Shown in pieces: positions 2,124-56,485 of a DNA stretch of 64,000 bases (positions are counted from its first letter, which is position 1; every line of letters begins with the position of its first letter). The position numbers and the translations under genes are program-made. This DNA is from Eledone cirrhosa (Eukaryota), in NCBI GenBank assembly GCA_964016885.1, contig OZ024743.1, positions 6,138,001 to 6,202,000 on the forward strand, in the 5' to 3' direction. Under the pieces are notes generated by a model. That model saw only the letters and a program-made list of their open reading frames with translations. It searched no databases and was not told the DNA's origin.

Positions 2124-3195
2124 TTATAGCCCTAGGCTACCCCCCGGATCATTATGGGGTTTGAGGGCGAGGTAGGTCCTACGTAATCGGTGTTTACATG
2201 CAGTAACCAGTTCATCTTTCTTGTTTAGGAGTTGGTCCGTCGAAAACAACATTTGTAATGTTTCCTCCGAGCATAAATTGCACGGACGGCGTCCTCCCGT
2301 GTAAGAGTTGGCTCTGGACAGTAATTTCCAAGTGAGATCATAGTTGATGTTGTTGTCCTTGAGGTCCCATATGTGGCCCGAAAGTGTAGTGGCGTGACGC
2401 CGGGCCGGGTTTCGGAAGGTATGTCTGTGTTGGTATAGCCGGGTCTTGAAGTCGCATGCGGTTAATCCTATATAAGCTTTTTTGGAGGTGTCCGTGCTCA
2501 CGTTGCACTGGTAGATCACATTACGGTCTCTGCATCTGTTGTCGAGGGGGCAACCTGATCTATCAGGACAGTTGCACCTCCTGGTCGGCTCTCCACTGCT
2601 ATTTAGGTTGTTTCTTCCATCGGGGTTGAGTTTTTTGTTGTTGGAGGAGACGATGTTTTGTGCGAAGTTTGGTGTAGTGCTGTAAGAGAGTTTGATGGTA
2701 TTTTTGTTAATTATGTTGTGGTAGCGGTGTTGTGGTGGGAAGTGTTTTTCAATGAGCCTAAAGAAAATTTTCCCGATGGGAGTTGTCACCTCAGCGTTGT
2801 GGGGAGGATTGAACCATGTTACATTGCGTGAGCGGCGGTGTCGCCTGCTGGTTCCGCTAATGGGAGCTGGACAGTAGGATATTTCCTCCCGGAAACCACT
2901 CCGCTTGAGGGCCTGGTTGTAGTAAGGCGCATGTTCATCGAATATCTTCTCATTAGCTGACAAACGGGATATACGGAGGGAGATGTTTTTGACCAGGTTG
3001 TTGGTGATGTTCCTGGGATGGTTAGATCGGCGGTGGATGTAGTGCAGGTTGTCATTGGGTTTCCTGTATGGGTAGTACAGGTCATTATTGAGATCGAGGG
3101 TAACGTCCAGGAAATTAACTCGGGTCAGGGACGTTTGTAGGGTTATTTTAAATCCCCAATCGCGGAAGAAGCTGATTAATTGTTTACGGACCCGA
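2124..3195 (-). CDS. PLE polyprotein C-terminal part (RT thumb, WFNPP linker, CNC..CPL..C motif, GIY-YIG endonuclease), 5'-truncated
   Basis: Open frame ...VNFLDVTLDL..YRKP..SNHP..VTWFNPP..CNCPDRSGCPLDNRC..VIYQC..AYIGLT..FKTRLYQH..CNLCSEE. The frame extends upstream of the called Met to the inversion junction. Confidence 0.88.
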
Positions 3196-3427
3196 TCTAC
3201 TTACCGTTTCGACCTCCCCCTCCCCCTCCCCAGTATCCTCTTTGACCTCACACCCAGCTGTAGCTGGCACTACCAACGCATGAATGGGTCTACTCCACCC
3301 CCTCTCCCCTTTTCTCCTACTGGCAGGTTTAGCTACCCCTTCCCCCACCAACTTGCCATCACAGATTTACTACTAACTTGTGATGTGACCAATCCTGGTG
3401 ATTATCTTTTTGACCATATATGGAATT

Positions 3428-3522
3428 ACCCCTTGATAAGTTCGGCTATTTAAATACCAGAATTAATTTTTCATTCAGTACAGAATTAGCCGTCGAAACG
3501 GCTTGAGCTCAGCCGTCGGGGT
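3428..3522 (+). ncRNA. Type I hammerhead ribozyme, variant core UUGAUAA (U3-A8)
   Basis: acccc-TTGATAA-gttcggcta..tagccgtc-GAAA-cggct tgagctc agccg-TC-ggggt; stems I, II and III all pair. Confidence 0.78.
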
Positions 3523-3784
3523 CTTACTTGTTCCTATTACCCACTCTACTACCCAAAGTATTGAGTATTTTGGTGCGTTATGGTCCACCTGGTTCCTTAC
3601 CACATTTCCTTCGTTATATATATATATATTATAGTTGAGACAGTAAACAGAAAACAAAAAACAAAACAACGTGGAAGCGAAGAGGCAGTACAAATGTTAA
3701 TATTAGTTTCACGCTTGAGAGCGTGTGGTTGTGGGGGGGGGGGGCGTGTTTATATATATGCATTTTTATATATATATAAAAATA

Positions 3785-4880: not shown

Positions 4881-4953
4881 GGTCAGGTAGCTCAGTCGGT
4901 AGAGCAGCGGACCGGCAATCCGAAGGTCCTGGGTTCGATTCCCACCCTGATTA
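4881..4953 (+). pseudogene. tRNA-like sequence (Ala, GGC anticodon), probably a repeat-borne pseudo-tRNA
   Basis: 73-nt cloverleaf: acceptor ggtcagg/cctgatt, D arm gctc/gagc, A box, B box GGTTCGATTCC, TTTT downstream. It has C33 instead of U33 and mismatches in the anticodon and T stems. Confidence 0.6.
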
Positions 4954-7241: not shown

Positions 7242-7323
<82 letters not shown>

Positions 7324-7957
7324 AACGAATTAGCCGTCAAAACAGCTTGAGCTCAGCCGTCGGGGTCCTACTCGTTCCTATTACCCACTCTACTACTCTA
7401 AGTATTGAGTACTTTGGTGCATTATGGTCCACCAGGTTCCTTACCACATTTCCTTCGTTATATATATATATATATATATATATAAATGTGTGTGTGTGTG
7501 TATGTGTATACATATATATATGTATGTGTGTGTATATATATATATGTGGGTATCTATGATCTATATACACTGGTCATAGACACACACATATATATATACA
7601 CACACTCACATATATATATATACACAACAACACCACCAGCTCTCTTCCATTCTCCTTCTCCGTCCTCTCCTTCCATCTATGTCTCCCTTTCAATCTACTC
7701 TCTCACAACCACTATCTTTTCCCCTCTCTCTTTTTCTCTATTTGTTTATGAAGGTACCCGGAAAAAACCCATATCTTTCCCAAGATATGGGTTTTTTCTG
7801 GGTACCGATTTATGCGAAACTTGTTTTATTCCATTTGTATTCCCATTTCAGGGGCAAATTCCTTTCAAAGTATTTTCCAATTATGCACCCTTTTGACTGT
7901 GTTACATTACAGACAAGCAAGCAAGCAATCACAGACTTTTAGTAATATATAGATAGA
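7090..7957 (-). mobile_element. Non-autonomous Helitron with nested insertions
   Basis: Minus strand begins TCTATCTATATATTACTAAAAGTCTG and ends with hairpin gtgacc..ggtcac followed by CTAG. The 3' part matches 48281-48385. Confidence 0.6.
7321..7459 (+). mobile_element. Terminal fragment of the PLE copy 1/2 family
   Basis: Matches 3485-3615, preceded by an 8-nt inverted stub aggaacga; inside (TA)n. Confidence 0.85.
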
Positions 7958-16462: not shown

Positions 16463-16474
16463 TAATATATATAC

Positions 16475-16553
<79 letters not shown>

Positions 16554-16554
<1 letters not shown>

Positions 16555-17432
16555 GAGGTGTGTCAGAAAGGTTCCAGGACTGATGTCACAAAAGATTTAT
16601 TTCAAACCCAAACTTCACACTAAGAGTTTTCTCCTTCAAAGTAATCCCCCTGGAGTATGTAACTGTAATCTTAGCTCTCTTCAGCGATCAAACTTTTTTC
16701 TTCATAATTTTATATACATGTCCTCTGTTTTAGGTCGTCAAGCAATGAGCACAGAGCAACAAACAAACTTGAAAACTCTGTCAGAAGCACTGGGATTGCT
16801 GCAGCAAGTGTATGGAGATGAGACGATGTCCCACTCACGTGTTTTTGAGTGGTGCAAGAGGTTTAAAGAAGGACGCGAGGACGTGGAAGACGACCCCAGG
16901 AGCGGAAGGCCCTCAACAACCACGACTGAGGTTAACGTTGAGCGCGTCAGGCAGATGGTGCGTAGCGATCGTCGGCTGACTGTTCGACTGATGGCAAATG
17001 AGCTGGGCATGAATCGGGACAGCGTCTGGAAGATTCTCACTGAAGATTTGGACATGCGGAAAGTCTGCGCGAAGATGGTGCCAAGACTGCTGAACGATGA
17101 CCAGAAGGGTCGACGCATGCAAGTGTGCCAGCACATCCTCGAGCGTCTTGAAACCGAACCAGACTTGCTAGGGATGAGTCATGGATCTTCGAGTACGACC
17201 CAGAGGGGACCCGTTTTGAAGACGTGGACGACATCAAAAAGGCCATGACGACGGAACTGCGGAGGATCCCGGAAGAATTCTTCCAGGAGTGCATGCAAGC
17301 GTGGCAGAAAAGGATGGAAAAGTGCATTAGACACCAGGGGGGTTTCTTTGAAGGAGAAAACTCTTAGTGTGAAGTTTGGGTTTGAAATAAATCTTTTGTG
17401 ACATCAGTCCTGGAACTTTTCTGACCCACCTC

Positions 17433-17433: not shown

Positions 17434-17471
<38 letters not shown>

Positions 17472-17476
<5 letters not shown>

Positions 17477-18555
17477 TAAATCATGTCCTTAGAATTATTA
17501 GATAAACTATATACCATTTCCTCTCCCAATTAGCATAATTAACCATATAAAAAATCAATTAGACTAGGCTATAAGAATAAAGGCTCCTATGAAGAAATTT
17601 TCGACAAATAACCGAAAGCGGCCTCTTCACGGTGACCCCGATAGAGTATTTATCCAACATTTCAACAGCATGTAGAAACTGACTAAATATACCGTCAACC
17701 ATACACAATTAGGTGTAAATTCAAACTTAGAAGAAACGTGTACATACCGTAATTATATCTCTACCATGGTTTCGTCCGTATTTTTAGACATCCCATTATC
17801 AGGATATATCCAGAGTAACAGACTCATCAGGAGAGAACAAGATTTGGACAGTTAATTTTCCAAAGTGATCGCGCCAAAAATAGATTCAAAAATGGCTAAG
17901 AATCGTGACGTGGCAGTGGTCAAGTTAGAAAGAATGTGATTAGTTCTTTGTTAGGTTGAGATACAATTGGGCTATATTGGACTGCGCTTTCTAGCAACAA
18001 GCCTACCCGCCGTAAGCAACTAATCACATTCTTTCTAACTTGACCACTGCCACGTCACGATTCTTAGCCATTTTTGAATCTATTTTTGGCGCGATCACTT
18101 TGGAAAATTAACTGTCCAAATCTTGAGTTCTCTCCTGATGAGTCTGTTACTCTGGATATATCCTGATAATGGGATATCTAAAAATACGGACGAAACCATG
18201 GTAGAGATATAATTACGGTATGTACACATTTCTTCTAAGTTTGAATTTACACCTAATTGTGTATGGTTGACGGTATATTTAGTCAGTTTCTACATGCTGT
18301 TGAAATGTTGGATAAATAATCTATTGGGGTCACCGCGAAGAGGCCGCTTTCGGTTATTTGTCGAAAATTTCTTCATAGGAGCCTTTATCCTTATAGCCTG
18401 GTCTAATTGATTTTTTATATGGTTAATTATGCTAATTGGGAGAGGAAATGGTATATATTTTATCTAATAATTCTAAGGACATGATTTATGATATATTGCT
18501 CTGATTATTTAATTTATTAATTCTTCATTGAGCCACAACGTGACCGGTTGCCGCA
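17472..18555. mobile_element. Fold-back element: ~475-bp arms (17472-17945/18018-18493), 60-nt right extension, HHR in each arm
   Basis: Arms are near-perfect reverse complements; (TA)n flanks; no ORF. Confidence 0.88.
18131..18207 (+). ncRNA. Type I hammerhead ribozyme (minimal stem III)
   Basis: tctc-CTGATGA-gtctgt..acggac-GAAA-ccatgg-TA-gaga; mirror copy on the minus strand near 17758-17834. Confidence 0.82.
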
Positions 18556-20233: not shown

Positions 20234-20273
<40 letters not shown>

Positions 20274-20275
<2 letters not shown>

Positions 20276-20482
20276 CGAAGGAAATGTGGTAAGGAACCAG
20301 GTGGACCATAACGCACCAAAGTACTCAATACTTAGGGTAGTAGAGTGGGTAATAGGAACGAGTGGGACCCCGACGGCTGAGCTCAAGCCGTTTCGACGGC
20401 TAATTCTGGACATGTTCTGGACATGTCCAGAATTAGCCGTCGAAACGGCTTGAGCTCAGCCGTCGGGGTCCCACTCGTTCCT
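20274..20482. mobile_element. Minimal fold-back of the PLE copy 1/2 terminus
   Basis: 80-nt extension plus ~62-bp arms meeting at ctggacatgt-t-ctggacatgtccag; inside (TA)n. Confidence 0.88.
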
Positions 20483-22592: not shown

Positions 22593-22658
<66 letters not shown>

Positions 22659-23951
22659 CGAAGGAAACGTGGTAAGGAACCAGGTGGACCATAACGCACC
22701 AAAGTACTCAATACTTGAGGTAGTAGAGTGGGTAATAGGAACCAGTAAGACCCCGACAGCTGAGCTCAAGCCGTTTCGACGGCTAATTCTGGACTAAATG
22801 AAAATTTATCCTGGTATTTAAATAGCCGATCTTCTCAAGGGGTAATTCCATATATGGTCAAAGTGATTGTCAAAAATCAGTAGTAATTCTGTGGTTGCAA
22901 ATTAGTAGGGGAGATGGTGGCTAAACCTGCCAGTAGGAGAAAGAGGGGAGGGGGTGGAGTAGACCCAATCAAGCGTTGGTAGTGCCAGCTACAGCTGGGC
23001 ATGAGGTCAAAGAAGATACAGGGGAGGGGGAGCGGGAGGAAGTCGGAACGGTAGGTAGAACAATGGGGGGTAGAAAAATATATATAGGAAAGAAAAAAAT
23101 ACTGAGAGTGAAGAAAAGCAAATAAGTGTAAAGAAAAAAGTAAAGTAAATTAAATTCTACGACCTAGGTCTCAGGCTATTGTTAGGCTAGAATAAAATAA
23201 AGAAAGAAAGAAAGAAGTAAAGAAATAAATAAATAAATAAATAACGAAATAAGTAAAAGAACTAGGTGGGACGGATAAGGCAAGGACCCTTTTAAGAGGT
23301 ATAAGTACGTAAATGATACGGTGACGGGTCAATAAAAGGGGCCAAAATACTAAAGAGACTACCACGAAATAAACAATAAAGGTTTCCATCCCGGGCCAGC
23401 AACGACCCAGTGCAGCAAAGTGAACTTGTACGAGATAATAATTCTGAGTCCCGAGAAAAATATATACTAATGCTAACTCTAAAAGATCTAAAACAAGCTA
23501 CATGAAAGTTCGTACGAAATAAAGGTAGAATACGGAGAAATAAATTCAGAATCCACCCCGCCCAGAAGAAAAGCGAAGCAAGAAATACTGAAACGAAAAA
23601 ATAAGGCATAAGTGCCACTAAGAAATATAGAGGGCACAGAGAATAGTGGGAGCGGTCGGAAAAAGGGGGCAAGTATCCGGGGTCTAAGCCAACTGCTATA
23701 AAGGGCGGAGTCCGCCAAATCTATCATAGACTAGGGGAGGGGGTGGTGGGGGTACTAAGGCTACATGGGGCCAAAGGGCAGCCTCGGGTGGGCGAGAAAA
23801 GACGCCGACAAAGGAGAAGAGCTGGGGTAGAAGGACTAAGGAGAGGGGGGGGAAATAAAGGAAGCGATAAAAGAATACAAAGAAGATCTTACGTCTTCCT
23901 TGGCAAGCAGGGGTTACCCATTGCAAAATCGGCAAGTGGGGTGTTATAGCC

Positions 23952-24896
23952 CTAGTCTACCCCCCCCCCCCCCGGGTCATTATGGGGTTTGAGGGCGAGG
24001 CAAGTCTTACGCAATCTATGTTTACATGCAGTGACCAGTTCATCTTTCTTGTTTAGGAGTAGGTCCGTCGAAAACAGCATTTGTAAAGTTTCCTCCGAGC
24101 ATAAATTGCACGGACGGCGTCCTCCCGTGCAAGAATTGGCTCTGGACAGTAATCTCCAAGTGAGATCATAGGTGATGTTGTTGTCCTTGAGGTCCCATAT
24201 GTGGCCCGAAAGTGTAGTGGCGTGACGCCGGGCCGGGTTTCGGAAGGTATGTCTATGTTGGTATAGCCGGGTCTTGAAGTCACATGCGGTAAGTCCTATA
24301 TAGGCTTTGTTGGAGGTATCCGTCCTCACGTTGCACTGGTAGATCACATTACGGTCTCTGCATCTATTGTCGAGTGGGCAAATAGATCTATCCGGGCAGT
24401 TACACCTCCTGGTCGGTTCTCCACTGCTATTTAGGTTATTTCTGCCATCGGGGTTGAGTTTTTTGTTGTTAGAGGAGACGATGTTTTGTGCGAAGTTTGG
24501 TGTAGTGCTGTAAGAGAGTTTGATGGTATTTTTGTTAATTATGTTGTGGTAGCGGTGTTGTAATGGGAAGTGTTTTTCAATGAGCCTAAAGAATAGTTTC
24601 CCGATGGGAGTTGTCACCTCTGCGTTGTGGGGAGGATTGAACCATGTTACATTGCGTGAGCGGCGGTGTCTCCTGCTGGTTCCGCTAATGGGAGCTGGAC
24701 AGTAGGATATTTCCTCCCGGAAACCACTCCGCTTGAGGGCCTGGTTGTAATAAGGCGCATGTTCATCGAATATCCGCTCATTAGCTGACAAACGGGATAT
24801 GCGGAGGGAGATGTTTTTGACCAGGTTGTTTGTGATGTTCCTAGGATGGTTTGATCGGCGGTGGATGTAGTGCAGATTGTCATTAGGTTTCCTGTA
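23952..24896 (-). CDS. PLE polyprotein C-terminal part with GIY-YIG endonuclease, 5'-truncated
   Basis: YRKP..SNHP..WFNPP..CNC..CPL..VIYQC..YIGLT..CNLCSEE. Confidence 0.88.
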   Translation of the reverse strand, partial: YRKPNDNLHYIHRRSNHPRNITNNLVKNISLRISRLSANERIFDEHAPYYNQALKRSGFREEISYCPAPISGTSRRHRRSRNVTWFNPPHNAEVTTPIGKLFFRLIEKHFPLQHRYHNIINKNTIKLSYSTTPNFAQNIVSSNNKKLNPDGRNNLNSSGEPTRRCNCPDRSICPLDNRCRDRNVIYQCNVRTDTSNKAYIGLTACDFKTRLYQHRHTFRNPARRHATTLSGHIWDLKDNNITYDLTWRLLSRANSCTGGRRPCNLCSEETLQMLFSTDLLLNKKDELVTACKHRLRKTCLALKPHNDPGGGGVD

Positions 24897-24966
24897 TTCC
24901 CCTACTAATTTGCAACCACAGAATTACTACTGATTTTTGACAATCACTTTGACCATATATGGAATT

Positions 24967-25060
24967 ACCCCTTGAGAAGATCGGCTATTTAAATACCAGG
25001 ATAAATTTTCATTTAGTCCAGAATTAGCCGTCGAAACGGCTTGAGCTCAGCTGTCGGGGT
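24967..25060 (+). ncRNA. Type I hammerhead ribozyme, variant core UUGAGAA (U3-A8)
   Basis: acccc-TTGAGAA-gatcggcta..tagccgtc-GAAA-cggct..agctg-TC-ggggt; mirror copy at 22750-22843 (-). Confidence 0.78.
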
Positions 25061-25070
25061 CTTACTGGTT

Positions 25071-25161
<91 letters not shown>

Positions 25162-35026: not shown

Positions 35027-38000
35027 TTTCTTTTATTTGCCACCAGGGCATCAAAATTGGGACAAGTACAATGGGGGGAGTTTACTAAACAAGGCGTCCT
35101 CAATAAGGAGGAGGCAATAACAATATATAAAAATAAAATAAAATATAACAAAAAATTAAATTTATAACAAAGTTCTCAATAGAGAGGAGGCGCCTTGGGG
35201 GGTCGCACACACCCCCGAAAAAAAAGTGTGCAACCCTTTTCCTCGGGAGCACAGAGAAGGGGTGCTCCCTTGGTCTTTCATCTTCCTCACCTATAGTCTG
35301 ATGTAGAGTGAAGGCCCATTCACACGGGCCATTCTCGCCACTTTCACCCATCTTTCATAAAAACGGCTGGGGTGCAGCACCTCTCTCTCCATCCTGATCC
35401 TTCTTCCGAAATGATATTGGAAGAAACGGACCAGTTGTTGGCCAGAGAGAAAGGTGTCTGACCTCAGTCCTTTCAGACGCGTCCACCATACAACCTCTTT
35501 CGCCATGGCTATTACGCACAGAAACACAGCCTCTTCTTCGTTTTTGAAGAGGGGAGGCGGCTTGATCGTTACAATAGACTCGGTGGTCAACCGGATCGGT
35601 CCCACCCTTGACAGCAGTTGTTCGACATAGCCCCACAGATCGGCAATGCCCGAGCAGTGTACCAATGCGTGTGCAACGGTTTCCTCATCGCACACGCATC
35701 TGGGACAGATCTTTTTCGAGGGGTCCCTACCCGGGCGCCCGTGTCTGTAGAGTCTTTCTCGAACGGGCAGAGCTCTTCTGTAGCATTGCCAGGCCAGGGA
35801 CCTCTGGAAGTTATCCATGGGTCCCGGGCTGAATGTCCTACCGAACAGGTTTGCCAGTTCGTCTTCCTCCATGCCTAGGGCTTCTCCGAGGGCGTCGTCG
35901 CACCTGCTAACCACCAGCCCTCTATAGAATGACGAGGTGGATTCTCCACTGACAGCCGGGTCCGCCTGCCAGAGAGCCGTGAGCGCCTGGGCACACTCGG
36001 TATGCCAGGCGCCCAGTTTTCTCGGTCTTTGCTTGACCCAGGATTGCAGCTCGGTGAGTGAGACGAGTCTGGGAAAGGCTCGCCTCACAAACGGGGCCCA
36101 CACCGGTTGACCGGAGAGGAATACCTGAAGGTGCCGTAGCCTTAATGCGTGTTTACGTATCATTAGCCACGGCATCCCCAGCCCTCCTTTCGAAGGGTGT
36201 TGACAGCAGATGGATCTCCTCACCATAGGAGCCCGCTTCTTCCAAAGGAATTGGAAGAGTGCGCGCTCCATTTTGGCGAGCGTTTCCATTGGGCAAGGCA
36301 CAACGGTCAGGCGGTAGTAGATGACGGACGCTATATAAGTGTTCGCCACCTCCGCCCGACCTTTCAGGGACAGTTTGCACTCGGCCCACTTCTGGGTCAG
36401 TGCAAACACCCTGTTCGTTACCTCACCCCAGTTCTTCTCCACCTGGAGGTCTGGTCCGAATCAGACCCCGAGCAACTTCACCGGGCCCTCCGTCCAGCGC
36501 CCGACGACGCCATCGGAGGGCATCGATCTGCCCCTCCACGTGCCGAGTTGCAGACCGATCGACTTGTCTCGGTTCAGCTTAGCCCCTGTAAACCTTTCGT
36601 ACTCCTCCAGTAAGGTGCCGATCGCCCCGATTTCCGAGGCCGTCGACACCATTACTGTTACGTCATCGGCGTAGGCTGACACCGCTTTCCGCAATCCCGG
36701 TTCCAACGGGATGCCCTGCAACAACTCCAACTTCCGCAGCAGTGGCTCTATAGTCATTACATACAGAAGGGAGGAGAGAGGGCACCCCTGTCGGATGGAC
36801 CGCGCGATTTCGAACGGCTCCGAGAGGTAGCCGTTCACCTTGACCCTAGAGCAGATGCGGCTGCTGTGCATGGCATTGATCCAGCCCCTGAAAACGGGTC
36901 CGAAGCCTGCCGCCGCTAGCACCGCATCCAGGTAACCATGGTCGACCCTATCGAATGCCTTAGATTGATCCAAGTTGATCAGGGCCCCACCAAAGCCGGG
37001 TTCGTTCCCAACCCTCTCTATGATGTATCGCATGAGGTGGAGGTTGTCGTGGATGGACCTGGACGGGATAGCACATGTCTGCGCATCTCCCACCAGGTTG
37101 CCCACGACAAGCGCCAACCTCTTTGCTAGCACCTTGGCCAAAATCTGTAAATCTGTATTTAGCAGAGTTATGGGCCTGAAATTATTTATATCGTCCCCCT
37201 TGTTCTCGTCCTTCCTCACTAGCGTGACTACGCCCTTGGTCACAGCACAGGGAATTCTCCCGTTCTGTTGACAGTTGCAGTAGACCGCCTCGAGGAGATC
37301 GGGGAACAAGTCCGGCATAGCTAGATATAGTTCGTATGGAAGACCATCGAGACCCGGGGATTTGCGTTTGCCGCATTGGATCAGCACGTCCTCTATCTCA
37401 GCGGCTGAAATCGGCTCCTCGCAGGACTTCGCCTCCCTGTCCGAGAGACGCGGCAGGCCGTCGAGGTATGGACCGAAGTCCACATCCCCAACCGGCTCCC
37501 CGCCCCTTCCGAACAATCCGGCAAAGTGCTTTTGAAAAGCCTCGCACATCTGCTTAGGTTCAAGGATCACCCGTCCATCCTGGTCTCGCAAAGACCGGAT
37601 AGTGGATCTGCTCCCTCTTTTGGCTTCTGTCACGCGGGCCCAGCTAACAGCTTTGGTCCCCTCGTTTCCCAAAGCACGTATTTTGCTTCGGACGATGCAG
37701 CCTTCGTGTTTCGCGTCGAAGAACTGGCCCAGGGCCGTTCTCGACGCTAGCACTCTGGCCACGTCGCCGCTTCTAATTGCCTCTTCTACACTATCTACCA
37801 ACTCCCTTTCCTTCCTATTTCTATTTGAGGCTAACTCCTTACTAAATTCTATAGAGACTACTCTAATCTCTCTTTTGAGAGATCCCCACCACCTGCTGTT
37901 GACGATGGCGCCCGTCAACCGCTCCTTAACTAAAGTGCTAATCCGGTCCCTGTAAGCCTTACTTGCCGGTAAGGACAAGTTGAGCTTCCAGTAACCGGGT

Positions 38001-38587
38001 CCCTGTCTAAGAGTTCTGTCAAGGTTGACCATGCAGGTCACTAATTTGTGGTCTGAATAGCCAACCATGCGCATTTTTGGACAACTTAAAAAGTCCTTAT
38101 CCTTAATTCTAACCAAGAACCTATCTAGGTACGACCTAGATGATCCGCTACGATTTGCCCAAGTCCAGGTTGGCGCAGTCGGAAAATCTAGTCGATATCT
38201 ATCGGCCAGGTCAAATCGACCGATTAACCCTTTGAGGCTATTACACCCCTCTCTATCGGGACAGGCCCCTACGTAGTCCCAGCGTGCATCTAGGATACCA
38301 TTCCAGTCCCCCACTAATAGCAAGGGGCGGGACGTCCCTAGAAAAGTCTCCAGACGATGGAAGAAGTCCGGCCGCATTGACCCGAAAGGGCCGTAGGCGG
38401 CTACCAACCTAAACGCTCCGCCTTTACCACTGCCAAGGTCCAGAACCACTAGTCGACCCTCCTGGTCCAAATGTACCATCTGTGTTGCGAGACCCAGATG
38501 TTTTTGCAGCAGAACGACAACCCCACCCCCACCTCCGGGCTGACAGAGAGATGCGTGCATCTGAAAGTCATCAAAGGTGGGGGTCAT
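35027..38587 (-). mobile_element. Tx1/L1-clade non-LTR retrotransposon, 5'-truncated within the endonuclease
   Basis: APE motifs (VGDWN, SYLDRF, SDH), RT (PGLDG, FRPITLLN, DQSKAFDRVDH, RQGCPLS, YADD), C-terminal CPRC..ETVAHALVHC, and a 3' UTR. Confidence 0.93.
35291..38587 (-). pseudogene. Tx1 ORF2 (EN-RT-Zn knuckle) with a single in-frame TGA at 36461-36463
   Basis: The two computed ORFs are in the same frame: KLLGV*FGPDLQVEKNW (expected LGVWFG). Confidence 0.88.
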
Positions 38588-38642
38588 ATATAGATAGATA
38601 GATAAATATACACGGGTGTGTATGATTGTGTATAGAAGATTA

Positions 38643-38801
38643 TATTAATAAGGGGAATTCCAACTTTGTCTGATTTACTCGTTTTATTTACAATCCTTTA
38701 AAATTTATAATGGTATTATAATGAAATAGTATGATACCATTATACATTTTAAAGGATTGTAAATAAAACGAGCAAATCAGACAAAGTTGGAATTCCTCTT
38801 A

Positions 38802-42544: not shown

Positions 42545-42588
42545 GGATAAATGAATAAAAAAACTTACAATAAAAAGAAACTACTTAC

Positions 42589-44475
42589 CTTGCTTTCTAT
42601 CTTTTACTGAGCCATATTCATCTGAGCGTTCGAAGGTAGTATATCCATCTTGAGTATCAACAAAAAGATTTGGGTTCGGTAATTGATGGTTATTATTTGT
42701 TAAATGTTGTTTGTTTAAATGATCATAATTTTGGTTAGCATGAATGTCAGTTTTGGAATTGTGGTTGCTTATCCCGAGGTCTAAAGCAGCCGCTCTATCA
42801 CCGATTACTTGTCGAACAGATGCACTGTCTTCCTTTCGCAGTGATGGCCTAACTTGTTGGTGAATGGAAGGACTTTTAAAATTGGATTGTTGCCCTTTAC
42901 GTTTTCGGGTAGCATGGTGGGAACCATCTATATCTCGATTGTTTGTTTGTCGTCTTTTACCATGATGGTAATTGGTAATATCATCTGTTTTTGAGTAAAC
43001 TGACTGGCTGTTTCCTTTCTCTCTCGTAGTATCTCGATGGCGATGAAGATTTTGCTGTACATTATGTTGGAGCCTACTGTCATGCCTATCAATTCTGCTG
43101 TCATGATCACTAGTTCTGTTGCGAATGTGTTCTCTTTGAGGAATTATTTCAGATCGTTCTTCTTTGTCACTAACATCAGGTTGAAACATGTTGAACTTTA
43201 TATCAACCGTCGGGACAGTTACAAGCTTTTCCTTAACAGCAGTTTCTTGGTTTTTATTACTATCTGTATATTCGCTTTGGGATGAAGATGTCGTAGATGC
43301 TGTCGTCCTAATCACATGACTTTCTTCACTCTCTTCTGGTTCCTCCCTATGTTCCTCTTTTCTTTGGTAGGGGTTGTATGGTTTTAAATCTTTGTCTGGT
43401 TGGACAGTATTTACATCTGTTCTGTTTTCAATAACTTCACTGTGTGGGATTTTTCGTTCATTTTCTATTGTCGAATCAAAAACTTCTTTTTTCGGAGGTT
43501 GAAGACCATCTCTTCCCGCATGTATGAAATACTGTCGATGGGAACTCTCTGGTCGGGTATCTATGAATGTTTCACTCTCAGGAGGATACTGACTGTTTGG
43601 AATTTCTGGTAAAGTATTTTCCACATTTTTTGAGTTGTGTTGCCGCCTATTTTCAAAGAAATAATCCTGTCCGTATGGCAAATAACCTTCGCCAGGTGGA
43701 ACCTGGAAGTGAGAACCATGATAATCATTGTCAGTTTCATAAGTTGGCAGCTGAGAATCAGGATAGTACTGATCAGGAATATCAACATTGTCTCTCTCTT
43801 CTACCAAAGCTGCACCATCCGGATATGTGGGGTAATGGGGCTGAATAAATCGGCCGTTATGATTCATTCCATGTTGACGGCCCTGGTTTAACCTACTGGG
43901 ATAACTAGGAACGTATCGAGTATCTCCGTCATAATTAGGTTCAAATTCCCCTCTCCCTGCGGGATCGATTTGACCGAATTGTGTTTGAACATTAGAGTTA
44001 GGATGATTTGGCACACGTTGTCCATTGAGAAAATATTCTCCATAATGTATTTGACCGGATGGATCCCGGTTTAAAATAGGGAGATGCTGATTTTGTCTAA
44101 AATTAGATATTTGTGGGTTTCCACCCCTCGGGTATTCTCTACCTGCTCCATAACCGTAATGTGGGAGTACATGTCTATTATCTGATTCCTGTAAACCAGT
44201 TTGTGCTGCATTCTGTTGCTTATATTCACTCAAAAATTTGGGTCCTTCTTTAACGACATAGTATCGACGTGTAGTGGAATGTCCACCTCCTAAGTCATCA
44301 CGGTAAGTATTTCCATTACGATAACCATTTTTTTCGTTTTTACGGTAATCAACCTGATCCGGATACCGAATAACTCCTTCTCGACTTAACTGCGATTGCC
44401 AGTATGCATTAGAACCTTGTAATTGTTGACGGTCTTTACTTCTAGACAGGTCTCTCTCAATCTGACACGATGCAT
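42589..44475 (-). CDS. Host gene giant exon (1887 nt, phase 1-1): low-complexity Y/G/N/Q/P-rich, then acidic and R/H-rich
   Basis: 629 uninterrupted codons in AT-rich DNA, ttttcctttctcaag acceptor, CAAG|gtaagt donor; no TE motifs. Confidence 0.85.
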
Positions 44476-44769
44476 CTTGAGAAAGGAAAAAAGAGGTTAT
44501 ATGTATTTTAATATATATATATATATATATATTAAAATACAAATATTAATAAAATAGATGTTCTTTTGATCAATTACATTTTATTATACATATTTCGGAT
44601 GTACAACCATTTAACATCTCCGGGTATGTCATGTATCATTATATTTTGTCTGATGAGGACGTACTGTTGAAAATTATTTTACCATAGAGTGCTTCCAATC
44701 TACTGTAAAACTCATTCTTTGATATACTCATTGAATCTTGTTTAACTCTTTAATATATATATATATATA

Positions 44770-45589
44770 TAAAGAATTAGTATATCTACCAACATATGTA
44801 TACAGATGCATACCTATGCTAGCAAATATATATGTTTTGTCTTAGTAACTTTGTGGTTCTATGCAAGGGGATGCGGAACAATTATATGAAAGACGTAAAA
44901 TAAGAAAATTATGAAAATCAACTTACTTACTAAAATTTCACTCCAACTAATTAGTTTCTGTAAGGGAATAAATATGGTTACGTAACGCACCCATAGAGAA
45001 TCCTTACGTCATCAGGGAGTCTATTCTCAGCTAAGCTCCCAGGCAATGCGTGGACACAGGGAACTTATATAAAAATAATTCAGTGGATGGAAAAAAGCGA
45101 GCGGGGACTAAATTCCAGGACATTGAAAAAATTCACTGCCTACTTGGTCAGTGGCAAATTCAAAAGAATCAATCACGTGACACTGAGGTTAATCAGAACT
45201 ATTTGTTGAGAAAAACTTGCCGAAATTACTACTATGGTTCATGGTAGTAGTTAGGCTCTTGTCTTATTAGCACCCCACTCCTCACTGATTAACCTCAGTG
45301 TCCCGTGATTGATTCTTTTGAATTTGCCACTGAACAAGTAGGCAGTGAATTTTTTCAATGTCCTGGAATTTAGTCCCCGCTCGCTTTTTTCCATCCACTG
45401 AATTATTTTTATATAAGTTCCCAGTGTCCACGCATTGCCTGGGAGCTTAGCTGAGAATAGACTCCCTGATGACGTAAGGATTCTCTATGGGTGCGTTACG
45501 TAACCATATTTATTCCCTTACAGAAACTAATTAGTTGGAGTGAAATTTTAGTAAGTAAGTTGATTTTCATAATTTTCTTATTTTACGTC

Positions 45590-45596
<7 letters not shown>
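44770..45596. mobile_element. Fold-back element: arms 44885-45197/45285-45596, ~115-nt left extension
   Basis: Near-perfect inverted arms between (TA)n tracts. Confidence 0.88.
45461..45541 (+). ncRNA. Type I hammerhead ribozyme
   Basis: actcc-CTGATGA-cgtaagg..ccttaca-GAAA-ctaattag-TT-ggagt; mirror copy near 44940-45020 (-). Confidence 0.8.
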
Positions 45597-45642
<46 letters not shown>

Positions 45643-45650
<8 letters not shown>

Positions 45651-47540
45651 CGACAGAACCATTACAATTAAAGAGGATGATAAAGGGAGTACAGTAGTCC
45701 TAATGGAGATAGAATTCTATATCAACTTAGCGCTCTCCACTTTGGAAAACGAAACATACTACGAAAAGGCTGAACACTACAATCAACAGAAAATTATGAG
45801 AAACCTAAAAACTCTGATCAACCAATACAAAGAAGGACTCACTAACAAGGAATTCAGCTTCATCACAGACTTCACAAGTAAATCCAGCCTTTTCTACGGT
45901 ATCCCTAAAGTACATAAATAAGTAAGGCATGCAAGGAAGCCACAGACATAGTCATCAATGTCCCCTCACCCAATGATCTCAAATTAAGACCTATAATAGC
46001 AGGCCCCGCTTGCGAAACCCATCGCCTTAGCAACTTCATTGACACCCTTCTCAAGCCTTTTCTCAAACACATCAAAAGCTATATAAGGGACGACCTAGAT
46101 ATGCTCAATCACCTCCCTAATATGCCCCTTTCTGAACAAACCCTACTAGTGACGTTCGATGTAGTCAACCTATACTCCAACATCCCCACAACCTAGGAAT
46201 AGAAGCTATCCAATTCTGGCTGGATAATTACCACAATTAACTCCCACAACGCATCAAAAAAGAATTCGTGATAGAGGGACTCAAATTTATCTTGGAGAAC
46301 AATTACTTCGTTTTCAATAACAAACCCTACAGGCAGAAATCTGGGACCGCTATGGGAACGAAAACAGCCCCCACTTATGCCAACCTAGTCATGGGATACC
46401 TGGGAATCACCCTCTACACTAAAGTACTAAACACATTTGGAAACACTCTCCACTTACACATAGAAAGGAACTGGAAGCGATATCTAGATGACTGCTTCAT
46501 CCTTTGGCACGAAAACATCGAGAAACTTAAAGAATTTCACACCCTTATAAATGGGCTCAACACGAATATTAACTTCACGATGGAATACAGTCATCAACAA
46601 CTCCCCTTCCTCGACATTCTCATTAAGATCCATAACAAAAAATAGAAACAGACATATACTACAAGCCCACAGACTCCAAGCAATATCTTCCTTTCAACTC
46701 TTGCCACCCTAGACACGTTAAAATTAATATTCCCTACAACTTAGCCAAGAGAATCTGTACTATAGTCTCCAATAAAAACACCTGTTACTTACGGCTACAA
46801 GAACTAAAGGACACACTCATAGGCAGGGACTACCCTGCATCACTAATTGACAATGGAATCCAACGTGCCCTAAAACTCAGTACCCAGGACCTTAGACACA
46901 TTAAAGTAAATCAACCGAAACTAAAAGCTCTTCCATACATCTCCACACACAACCCCCTCAATAATGAGGCCTTTGACACCATCCTCCAGAACATCCCTGT
47001 GTTAAAAAAGGACCATAGAATGAACCAAATCCTACGAACACACGATATCATAAAGAGCCAAAGACAATTAAGTCAATGAAAAACATCCTAACACATGCCA
47101 AAGTACTGCCAACCACAACAACGAAACCCACAGTAAAAAAATGCGATAGACCCAACTGTGGCATATACATCAACCTAATAGAGGGTTCGGAATTCTATTT
47201 CAAAGAAGGACAACGTTTTATAGTAAAACACAATTTCACATGCGCATCAGAAAATCTAATATATGTATTAACTTGCTCAGATTGTCGAGAACAATACATA
47301 GGCCAGACTAAAATCAGCCTCCGCCAACGCATGACTGTCCATAGATCCCAAATTAAAATACGGGAATACAGGAAAATACCACTGAGTGAACACATTCATA
47401 CCTGTGCCGCCCCAAATCATCCCAACTTCAGAATCTTTCCCCTCTACAAATTTAAAGATAATGCCACCCACACCCAGCGCATCAGCAAGGAATCTCACTT
47501 TATTAACAAATACGGACCCCGTCTAAACACTTCTCCCTAA
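45643..47540 (+). pseudogene. Penelope-like (Neptune-like) RT + GIY-YIG ORF, 5'-truncated, with frameshifts and stops
   Basis: IKEDDKG, FYGIPKVHK, LRPII, FDVVNLYSNIP, QKSGTAMG, RYLDD, LPFLD, Cys linker CDRPNC, NLIYVLTC..QYIGQT. Confidence 0.9.
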
Positions 47541-48514: not shown

Positions 48515-49307
<793 letters not shown>

Positions 49308-52896: not shown

Positions 52897-55800
52897 ACCC
52901 CATCTCCCCCCCGCCCCCCACCACCCCCACCCTCCAAACGCAATCCAAAACTTCAGAGTTGGTACCATAAATATAGGCACCCTAAAGGGTCGCGCTAACG
53001 AGGTTGTAGAAATGCTTGAACGTAAGGAGGTCGATGTTTGTTGTATTCAAGAGACCAGGTGGAGGGGTGGGTCTGCTAGATTCATTGAGGGTAAAAAACG
53101 ATGTTATACGCTTTTCTGGGTGGGAAACGACGATGGGCTGGGTGGAGTAGGAATCATGGTAGCAGAAAAGTGGGCAGATAAGATAATAGACGTAAATAGA
53201 GTGAACGACAGAATAATTAAAATACGACTTGTCCTCAATAGAACTACGGTGACAGTAATATCTGCGTACGCACCCCAATCCGGACTGCCCGGCACTATAA
53301 AAGACAGATTCTATGAGACACTGTTGCTAACTACCTCCCAAATATCTGACAGTGACTATATAATTATTGCAGGCGACCTAAATGGTCACGTTGGACAACA
53401 TTGTGACGGCTACGACGAAATCCATGGAGGCTATGGGTTTGGTACTAGAAATGAAGAAGGCTCCAGAATCCTGGAATTCTGTGATGCAAATAACCTAACT
53501 ATCTGTAACACTAACTTCAAAAAACGTGACAATCACCTGATCACCTATAGATCCGGGGAACACACAAGCCAGGTAGATTATATCCTTACCAGAAGACGTG
53601 ACAGAGTGTCTGTTGTAAACACTAAATCCCTCCCCCATGAAGAATGCACCTCCCAACATAGACTGATAATTAGCGACCTCATAGTCAGGACGAGACGTAC
53701 TCGACAGCAGAAGAGGACTATCCTCAGGAGAAAAATATGGAAGCTAAAGGACCCCACAGCCAAAAATAAATTTCAAAACATATTACTTGATGCTTTCGAC
53801 AGTAAGGAAGAACATTTAGAGTCGGACAATATAGAGGGACAGTGGGAATTTCTGAAAGCAAACCTGCTGTTGGCGACAGACGAAGTCTGTGGCTGGAGCA
53901 GGCCTGTAGGCAGGAGGAGAGTAACATGGTGGTGGAACAGTAAGGTGGAGGGGTCAATTAAGGCCAAAAAGCAGGCTTGGAAAGTATGGCGGGATGGGGG
54001 AAGTAGAGTAGACTATCAAGTGGCCAGGAGGGAAGCTAGGAGAGAAGTGTACTTAGCAAGAAGGGAAGCTGAGGAAAGAAAGTTCAAGCATGTTCTACAA
54101 CGCGATGACCAAAAACGTGAGGTGTTCAGGATTGCTAGGCAATGCGTCAAGGAAAACCGTGATATTGTCGGGGAGAAGTGTGTACTTAACGATGATGGCA
54201 TACTTGCCATCACCGACGCTGATAAGAAGGTAGCTTGGAAGTGTCACTATGAAAGGCTACTAAATGAGGAGAATAAATGGGAGAAAGACAGTCTCCCCCA
54301 TATCGACCCAATAGAGGGACCAGCAGTGTTAGTCGAGGGGAGTATAATAAGTAAGGCAATCAAGGATATGAAGACGGGTAAGGCGGCTGGGCCTTCGGAA
54401 ATAGTTGCTGAGATGCTGAAGGCATCTGGCACGGTGGGACACACCATGGTCACCCGCATAGTTAACCAAGTCGTACAGAATGGGGTTGTTCCGAAGGACT
54501 GGCATAGCAGCATCATCATTAACTGTTATAAGGGTAAAGGAGACGCCCTAGATAGGAGTAACTATAGAGGCATTAAATTAATCGACCAGGTCATGAAGGT
54601 CACGGAAAAAGTAATAGCGCAACTAATCAGAGAGAGAATTGACCTAGATGAAATGCAGTTCGGGTTTGTGTCAGGCAAAAGTACCACAGACGCTCTTTTC
54701 ATAGTACGACAACTACAGGAGAAGTTCCTAGCTAAAGGTAAACCCCTCTACTTAGCTTTTGTCGACCTGGAGAAAGCCTTCGACAGAGTCCCCCGCTCCA
54801 TTATCTGGTGGGCTCTTAGAAAACTAGGCGTTGACGAATGGCTTGTGAGGGCTATACAAGCCATGTATAAAGAAACAGTCAGCAAGGTTAGAATTAACAA
54901 CGAATATAGTGAAGAGTTTAGCGTAAAAGTTGGCGTCCATCAGGGCTCTGTTCTCAGCCCCCTACTATTTATTATTGCCCTTCAGGCTATAACAGAGGAG
55001 TTCAAGACAGGCTGCCCATGGGAACTCCTATACGCAGACGACCTGACACTCATAGCGGAATCAATGGCCGAGCTAGAGAAGAAATTCCAAACATGGAAGC
55101 ACGGCCTAGAGTCAAAAGGACTTAAAATTAACCTGGCTAAGACCAAAGTTCTAGTTTGTAGGAAAGAAAACAAGGCGGCGGTCCCTTCTGGGAAATGGTC
55201 GTGCTCGGTGTGTAGGAAAGGCGTAGGTAGAAACTCCATTTTATGTCCTAAATGCAAAGTATGGGTGCATAAAAGATGTAGTGGGATCACAGGTAAGCTA
55301 ACTAAGAACATAGATTTTACATGTGGCCGGTGTTCTGGTGCAATAAGTAGCAGCAAGTGCCCACAAAATACTAGCTCTTTCAATGGCGCAGAGGGTCCTA
55401 TAGAAATAGTGGACAGCTTCCGTTACCTGGGCGATAAAATCAGCAGTGGGGGAGGGTGCTCTGAAAGTACTGTAGCTAGAGTCAGAACTGGTTGGAAAAA
55501 GTTCAGAGAGCTTATACCACTATTAGCTGCTAAAGGGTTCTCCCTAAAAATGAAAGGCAGGTTGTACGATGCCTGCATACGAACAGCAATGTTGCATGGC
55601 AGTGAGACCTGGGCATTGTGTGCAGAGGATATACGCAGACTAGAGAGGAACGAAGCTTGCATGCTCCGCTGGATGTGTAACAGTAATATACGTGAACGGC
55701 AAAGCATAAACGAACTAAGGAAAAAATTAGAGATAAGAGGGATCAGATGTTGTTTACTCGAGAGAAGGCTACGTTGGTATGGACACGTGATGCGCATGAA

Positions 55801-56382
55801 AGTCGATAGCTGTATAACAAAGTGCAGGGCAATAAAGATAGACGGTAGTCACGGAATAGGCAGACCTAGAAAAACCTGGGACGAGCTGATAAACTCCGAC
55901 ATCACACACTTACACCTATCCAAGACAATGTCACTGGACCGAGACCTTTGGCGGTACTCAGTAACAGAGAAGACCCGCCTTACCTAAATATATAGTAAAA
56001 CCTACTCCAGCCAGTAGGCATCTCTAACAAAATACACCCCGTCCCACCACCACCACCCCATCCACACCACCCCATTCTATGTAAAGTTATGTTGGTGCCG
56101 CGCCATCCAGGCCGAAACAAATGAGATCATGTAGGTGTCACGACAAAAAAACACACAGTCCACGCTGTAATGTGGCCGTGTAGGCAACACGGTAAAAACC
56201 TCCCAGACCCACACTGTAAATGTGGTTGGTGTTAGGAAGGGCATCCAACTGTAGAAAACCTGCCAGACAGTCCTATGCGAGCAAGACAATCACTCTTGCC
56301 TCAAGTGGGACTACCCCCGTCCAAACCCATGCAAGCGTGGAACACGGACGTTAAACGTTGATGATAATGATGATGATGATGA

Positions 56383-56422: not shown

Positions 56423-56425
<3 letters not shown>

Positions 56426-56478
56426 AACATGTTCAAGACCCCGGCGGCAAAGCTCAAGCCGTTTCGATGGCTATTTCT

Positions 56479-56485
<7 letters not shown>
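56423..56485 (-). mobile_element. Diverged short-end fragment of the PLE copy 1/2 terminus
   Basis: aggaac..agaccccggcggc..agctcaagccgtttcgatggcta inside (TA)n. Confidence 0.75.

Follow-up and report, generated by a model that had tools for sequence, protein, structure and literature searches.

Succession of position 3-8 states in the hammerhead motif of a Hydra-clade Penelope-like retrotransposon family in Eledone cirrhosa

In the genome of Eledone cirrhosa, one family of the Penelope-like retroelements (PLEs) carries in its pLTRs what appears to be an inherited type I hammerhead, the fold of which would have been conserved while the pair between core positions 3 and 8 changed from U·G to U-A, then to C·A, and finally to U-A again. 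Comparison of the copies suggests that the motif is likely, if by a modest measure, a weak ribozyme whose cutting is unneeded for copying. The U3-A8 variant itself is already known; the new part is the history of the 3-8 pair. We describe this history from two insertions in a window (the whole stretch of DNA analysed, 64,000 nucleotides) and from their relatives across the genome.

The four motifs in the window come from two insertions, both of which have a pair of inverted arms arranged head to head. The arms differ at 1 of 340 bases in insertion 1 and at 0 of 177 bases in insertion 2; because the two arms of each insertion are nearly identical, the window holds just two independent samples, hereafter copy 1 and copy 2. 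Insertion 1 includes (i) an ORF-sense 3' pLTR arm (833–1172, -), which is 99.7% identical to the inverted arm, ends about 17 nt past the cut with GTTCCT followed by (TA)n, and carries the ORF-sense motif (846–940, -; read from 940 to 846); (ii) the 3' UTR region (941–2123, -); (iii) a 5'-truncated PLE ORF fragment (2124–3200, -) containing the RT end, the CxCX5C linker, and a GIY-YIG-type endonuclease; and (iv) an inverted pLTR arm with a tail (3196–3615, +), which ends about 98 nt past the cut with CCTTCGT followed by (TA)n and carries an identical motif (3428–3522, +; core UUGAUAA) running opposite to the ORF fragment. An RNA across the whole of insertion 1 could form a 342-bp fold-back duplex. 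Insertion 2 (22657–25073, -), which belongs to a sister young subfamily of the family of insertion 1, contains an ORF fragment (23952–24923) and two motifs with the core UUGAGAA, one in the ORF-sense arm (22750–22843, -) and one in the inverted arm (24967–25060, +). The preliminary description had placed the three motifs other than 3428–3522 at these same positions, correctly. To its statement that position 7 is the only one in the core to vary between the copies it must be added that copy 2 also has A for T at N10.2 and a G·U pair in stem III (AGCTG). Shorter pieces of the family are a hammerhead 3' half with a tail between (TA)n tracts (7322–7460, +), a two-armed inverted insertion with the hammerhead 3' half on both arms and a tail on one (20273–20482), and an older arm with the hammerhead 3' half (56423–56482, -).

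Elsewhere in the window, a tRNA-like sequence (4881–4953, +; Rfam 57.4 bits) is possibly a SINE head. Two LINE-like ORFs (35291–38644, - and 52898–55987, +) have endonuclease and RT motifs by eye, and a 1029-aa LINE-like frame is open throughout. A GIY-YIG fragment (47019–47540, +; Pfam PF01541, E 1e-7) comes from a different PLE, probably of the Naiad or Neptune type, and the stretch 16466–17248 (+) we take, by its motifs, to be a Mariner-like transposase fragment. Three other long inverted repeats (17469–18496, 44883–45598, and 48541–49182) have arms of 287–370 nt that are 94–99% complementary, and a 654-aa open frame (42581–44545, -) resembles a large host exon.

The motif at 3428–3522 (+) comprises a stem I formed by ACCCC (3428–3432) and GGGGT (3518–3522), the core TTGATAA (3433–3439; U3-U4-G5-A6-U7-A8-A9), a G10.1-C11.1 pair in which G3440 faces C3494, a stem II formed by CGGCTA (3443–3448) and TAGCCG (3487–3492) around a 38-nt loop II, GAAA at 3495–3498, a stem III formed by CGGCT (3499–3503) and AGCCG (3511–3515) around the palindromic loop TGAGCTC, and U3516-C3517 of a GUC site, with a predicted cut between 3517 and 3518. 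The stems, core, GAAA, and GUC site described earlier for this segment are thus confirmed by the letters and by the minimum-energy fold. This fold of 3428–3522 is the three-way junction (z -2.24; 4 of 200 shuffles were equally good), and longer pieces give z values of -1.6 for copy 1 and -0.47 for copy 2. The predicted stem probabilities are 0.91–0.94 in copy 1 and 0.69–0.92 in copy 2, and an alternative hairpin (AGCCGU/ACGGCU) has a probability of 0.01 in copy 1 and 0.18–0.44 in copy 2. Helix I is predicted to extend beyond an internal loop (GGAAU/GUUCC). By eye, AGU of loop II (3477–3479) could pair with ACU of the helix I internal loop (3526–3528); this contact reads AGUC/GACU in the oldest subfamily and AGUA/UACU in copy 1, and some subfamilies have ACA.

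As in type I hammerheads, three helices surround the core and the ends lie in stem I; U4, G5, A6, A9, GAAA, A15.1-U16.1, an NUH site, and G10.1-C11.1 are all present. Judged by the fold and by 14 invariant core residues, the motif is a genuine type I hammerhead fold in a PLE pLTR. Rfam returned no hammerhead family at E ≤ 10 on 3380–3560 (all 5 rows), and for the whole window no hammerhead was among the best 150 of 275 rows. It had been foreseen that searches based on CUGANGA would miss the motif, and CUGANGA descriptors and Rfam do indeed miss a family with more than 5,700 motif copies in one genome.

A tandem copy (L055) contains, all on the same strand, a hammerhead, a 786-aa open frame, and a second hammerhead. 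Its single ORF encodes RT followed by a C-terminal GIY-YIG endonuclease, with YRDD and VIY..YIG motifs, DKTG at 184, RWR at 104 (R for K), a CxCX5C linker (CNCPDRSIC, 639), CNLC (CxxC, 737), and CKH (CxH, 765); GxK[FY] is absent. Family insertions sit in (TA)n, and their pLTRs are tandem or inverted with a tail on one end. These protein motifs place the family among the Hydra-clade Penelope-like retrotransposons, and the PLE pLTR location proposed earlier is supported, the element being a (TA)n-inserting one of this clade. As in the Hydra-clade PLEs described by Craig et al. 2021 (PMC8557442), the family has DKT, RW[K/R], the CxCX5C linker, CxxC and CxH around E/N, (TA)n targets, inverted arms, a tail on one end, and a sense hammerhead near the 3' end. 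Compared with these PLEs, the 3' UTR of the family grew from about 0.6 to 1.2 kb; along the succession described below it lengthened from about 600–650 nt in the oldest subfamilies to about 1100–1250 nt in the youngest. Pfam gave no match for the family ORF, and the viral contigs searched contained no relative.

The canonical core, described as universal in the Hydra clade, is replaced in the family by UUGANAA or CUGAGAA. In File S2 of the same study, by contrast, 26 of 26 Hydra rows have CTGANGA and none has the family's motif. Three near-identical metagenome relatives, with 36–37% protein identity, carry CTGAGGA (3 of 8 loci); the other 5 of 8 loci were weak partial matches in which the canonical motif was not found. 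Since the 26 Hydra rows and the metagenome relatives are canonical, the ancestral core of the family was most likely canonical as well.

The core states were counted as exact matches with fixed flanks across the 3.0-Gb genome, so that the matches are arms rather than insertions and old copies are under-counted. A 21-mer that covers stem I, the core, and stem II gave 4220 matches for U3-A8, 1500 for the C3·A8 mismatch with the same flanks, 39 for U3·G8 (23 of them one old UUGAAGA subfamily), and 9 for C3-G8, 5768 in total over the four states, and the reversed control patterns, that of U3-A8 included, gave 0. A 3-8 Watson-Crick pair, U-A in the window copies, is absent from 1539 of the 5768 matches, among them the copies ancestral to those in the window. 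Position 3 is a purine in no more than 45 copies, which are scattered (slightly different pattern). From these counts, A8 is nearly fixed, and position 3 shows no covariation with it. Decay of a CTGANGA consensus, which would have undone the preliminary description, does not account for a family in which 4220 of 5768 matches are U3-A8 and 9 are CTGANGA. The genome-wide check of Y3-R8 states proposed there upheld U3-A8 as the majority state but not clean covariation, given the 1500 C3·A8 matches. An unbiased pattern found 6551 matches; by eye, the same subfamilies were present among the 100 matches listed, and U4-G5-A6, A9, and G10.1 were kept in 27 of 28 copies tallied.

The C3·A8 copies retain the rest of the motif. 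Among ten loci that had been picked as C3·A8 pairs, nine carry C3·A8 on both inverted arms and the tenth (L070) has two same-strand C3·A8 copies; the mismatch on both arms indicates that it was already present in the template. Several further core states were considered and set aside: (i) a canonical C3-G8 sub-lineage, since such copies look like sporadic point changes (in the earliest C3 subgroup, 2 of 58 C3 copies); (ii) an older C3-G8 family, of which none was seen among 64 G8 matches with free stem I; (iii) a G3·A8 side lineage, shared by only 2 copies; and (iv) a shifted register (C3-U4-G5-A6 without N7, then G8-A9 and one additional A), which would turn CUGAGAA canonical and does not work in the U3 subfamilies, since any of A, C, G, or U stands at that position there. 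For the C3 subfamilies alone, the shifted register is still conceivable. A slippage intermediate between U3 and C3 may be represented by a subgroup in which stem I has five C before UUGA(A/C)AA (G000:C1:180931, 184633, 29902554, and 49231840, among others).

The order of the states was read from two trees: an ORF tree built from the last 900 nt of the ORF without hammerhead columns (45 rows, and also a 30-row version), and a pLTR tree of 131 rows with positions 3, 7, and 8 removed. The pLTR rows were reduced from 172 to 131 by removal of 10 truncated motifs and 31 rows shorter than 250 nt, and then to 126 by removal of 5 rows of L104, L133, and L155 that were misplaced by non-homologous flanks; the tree samples come mostly from the first contig and were picked by core type rather than drawn at random. 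Both trees give the same ladder, namely U3·G8, U3-A8 (UUGAAAA and UUGACAA), a long C3·A8 grade (CUGAGAA), and U3-A8 again, and one young U3-A8 clade holds both window insertions (support 100/100 in the ORF tree). Both trees are unrooted, and the direction was taken from end-branch lengths and arm-to-arm divergence, which is 4.5–14% for U·G, 1.1–9.9% for C·A, 0–2.8% for young U-A, and 0.3% and 0% for the window insertions. A side clade holding the C3 copies was rejected, as 19 C3 rows do not form one clade (AU test, p-AU 3e-5; the tested group was defined by base after the trees had been seen).

Of the 229 changes on the trunk that leads to the window copy, 69 fall in the C3·A8 phase. Synonymous and non-synonymous ORF changes number 40 and 17 on this part of the trunk, compared with 230 and 471 on end branches (p 6e-8). 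Purifying selection on the ORF continued through the mismatch phase, and the C3·A8 elements were therefore a coding, transposing master lineage. By their place in the trees, the C3·A8 copies are direct ancestors of the window subfamilies. The U3-A8 pair of the window would have arisen when C changed to U in copies that already had A8; this change may have brought back a little activity, or it may be drift.

Known hammerheads share parts of this picture. U3-A8 has been reported in pLTR hammerheads of the Cercyon PLEs of Schistosoma mansoni, with about 1300 matches (Cervera & De la Pena 2014, PMC4209133). As described there for Cercyon, the family has its motif in the pLTR, U3-A8, G10.1-C11.1, a 5-bp helix I, a palindromic loop III, and motif pairs on opposite strands. 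Unlike the Cercyon motif, the present one has a full 5-bp stem III that is predicted to form in the monomer, has a 38-nt loop II, lacks an extra base between A9 and G10.1, and has mismatched C3·A8 and U3·G8 subfamilies on the master lineage. U3-A8 was treated as natural covariation by Perreault 2011 (PMC3088659), who cited earlier work for its activity in vitro; a mismatched 3-8 lineage is found only here when set against the variants as that paper describes them. The earlier assertion that 3-8 swaps retain activity is valid in some contexts but not in others: a deep mutational scan of a different hammerhead found rescue by G3-C8 alone (Roberts 2023, PMC9901934). In a co-transcriptional assay, a natural hammerhead with the core CUGANAA was inactive, in line with its prediction (PMC8490949). 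Within the openly accessible literature, no report of a transposing C3·A8 PLE lineage was found.

Constraint on the fold was assessed by counting lineage changes, that is to say, changes on branches with at least 4 loci on each side (126 rows, 99 loci). Positions 3, 7, and 8 have 2, 3, and 1 such changes, respectively, and the 14 other core sites have 0. The stems have 3 changes at 30 sites, all pair-compatible (two give G·U and one closes a mismatch), loop III has 0 at 7 sites, and loop II and the flank have 245 at 280 sites, so that core and stems differ from these reference sites with p 2e-9. The 5' half of the motif was fixed by the search pattern, so that its part of the test is biased by ascertainment (p 0.08 alone); in the 3' half, which is free of the pattern, nine core sites have 0 lineage changes against 33 end-branch changes. 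On a slight balance of probability, the fold was most likely selected while cutting was weak and dispensable. Against our reading, the trunk always kept Y3/R8, and each of the two mismatch phases gave way to a Watson-Crick pair, as some selection for pairing would lead one to expect. The strict invariance of G5, A6, A9, G12–A15.1, and C17 is likewise the pattern expected of an active ribozyme. Loop III is equally invariant, so that protein binding or dimerisation, rather than catalysis, may be what conserves the 3' half.

The same invariance bears on the possibility that the ribozyme has been dead since the loss of C3-G8, with the junction serving as a platform for protein binding or priming and U3-A8 being neutral drift. 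This account, which we consider unlikely, would explain why positions 3 and 8 change at an approximately unconstrained rate (3 lineage changes at 2 sites), why loop III is invariant without a catalytic reason, and why the shorter of the insertion ends falls where the extended helix I stops (GUUCC), and it agrees with the rescue by G3-C8 only in PMC9901934 and with the spread of Naiad elements without canonical hammerheads (PMC8557442). It does not explain why all other catalytic residues, including the permissive C17, remained unchanged over 229 trunk changes, as a mere binding site need not keep every catalytic residue.

The arms have two end sites downstream of the cut: GTTCCT followed by TA at about 17 nt, and CCTTCGT followed by TA at about 98 nt. 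The second of these is found in all four tailed window arms, and in a set of 53 arms the reference itself ended there. These 53 arms, from 30 loci chosen only by the sequence downstream of the cut, include none that start at or after the cut (0/53), and 39 of the 53 stop 21–45 nt upstream of it, within the 3' strand of stem II or just beyond that strand. Genome-wide, 28,562 matches span the cut junction, far above the 5,768 full-core matches. Most family insertions are tiny two-armed hairpins with only the hammerhead 3' half (L160–L189). As the arms run across the cut site, the templates would have been uncut or re-joined. Reverse transcription would start about 17 and 98 nt downstream of the cut and would have to cross it to reach the ORF, which again points to uncut or re-joined templates; fast cutting would abort copying. 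Against the weak-ribozyme reading, arms that cross the cut would also be expected from circles made by re-ligation of cut RNA, or if templates that had been cut simply gave no insertion.

The PAc Poseidon element of Anolis (Frangieh et al. 2024, PMC11167929) likewise has two fixed 3' ends downstream of its hammerhead, AT-rich targets, and templates uncut at the ribozyme site. Its core, in contrast, is canonical and overlaps the start codon, whereas the first ATG of L055 lies about 190 nt past the cut, and its tail is 30–40 nt compared with about 80 nt here. In PAc, C3G or G8C abolished the hammerhead and left insertion in vitro unaffected, and the hammerhead cut only with its protein present. 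That dependence would also suit a reading in which all states were active, the scaffold or the protein tolerating U·G and C·A+ at 3-8 and re-ligated circles serving as templates. Only Y3/R8 combinations became master lineages, a model in which cut RNA is re-ligated into a circular template has been proposed (PMC4209133), and a more-than-unit tandem (L055) exists. We nevertheless regard such tolerance as distinctly improbable, because a single change at 3 or 8 was enough to abolish activity in the assays cited here (PMC11167929, PMC9901934, and PMC8490949) and because 0 of 53 arms start at the cut. Least probable of all, and very improbable in our estimate, is the preliminary view of U3-A8 as a cleanly selected compensatory pair that keeps an efficient ribozyme: U3-A8 is the majority state and that of all youngest subfamilies, was reached twice, and is a known natural variant (PMC4209133 and PMC3088659), but C3·A8 was the state of the lineage for 69 of 229 trunk changes, and that phase left 1500 mismatch matches, direct ancestors of the window subfamilies by the trees, with the ORF kept under selection.

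The role of the hammerhead in PLEs has been stated as open (Craig 2021, PMC8557442), and the direct test cited here is in vitro (PMC11167929). Within a single scaffold, the family provides a natural series of U·G, U-A, C·A, and sporadic C-G, in which the order is known and there is evidence that each main core state transposed. A U3-A8 core in a few copies is no proof of compensatory selection. We propose tentatively, with somewhat more doubt than belief, that thousands of dated copies record a hammerhead losing and regaining its 3-8 pair, that the autonomous retrotransposon thrived with a catalytically broken C3·A8 while the rest of the fold stayed perfect, and that the Penelope "ribozyme" may be a structural platform serving the element's protein, or a deliberately throttled switch, rather than an RNA-processing enzyme.
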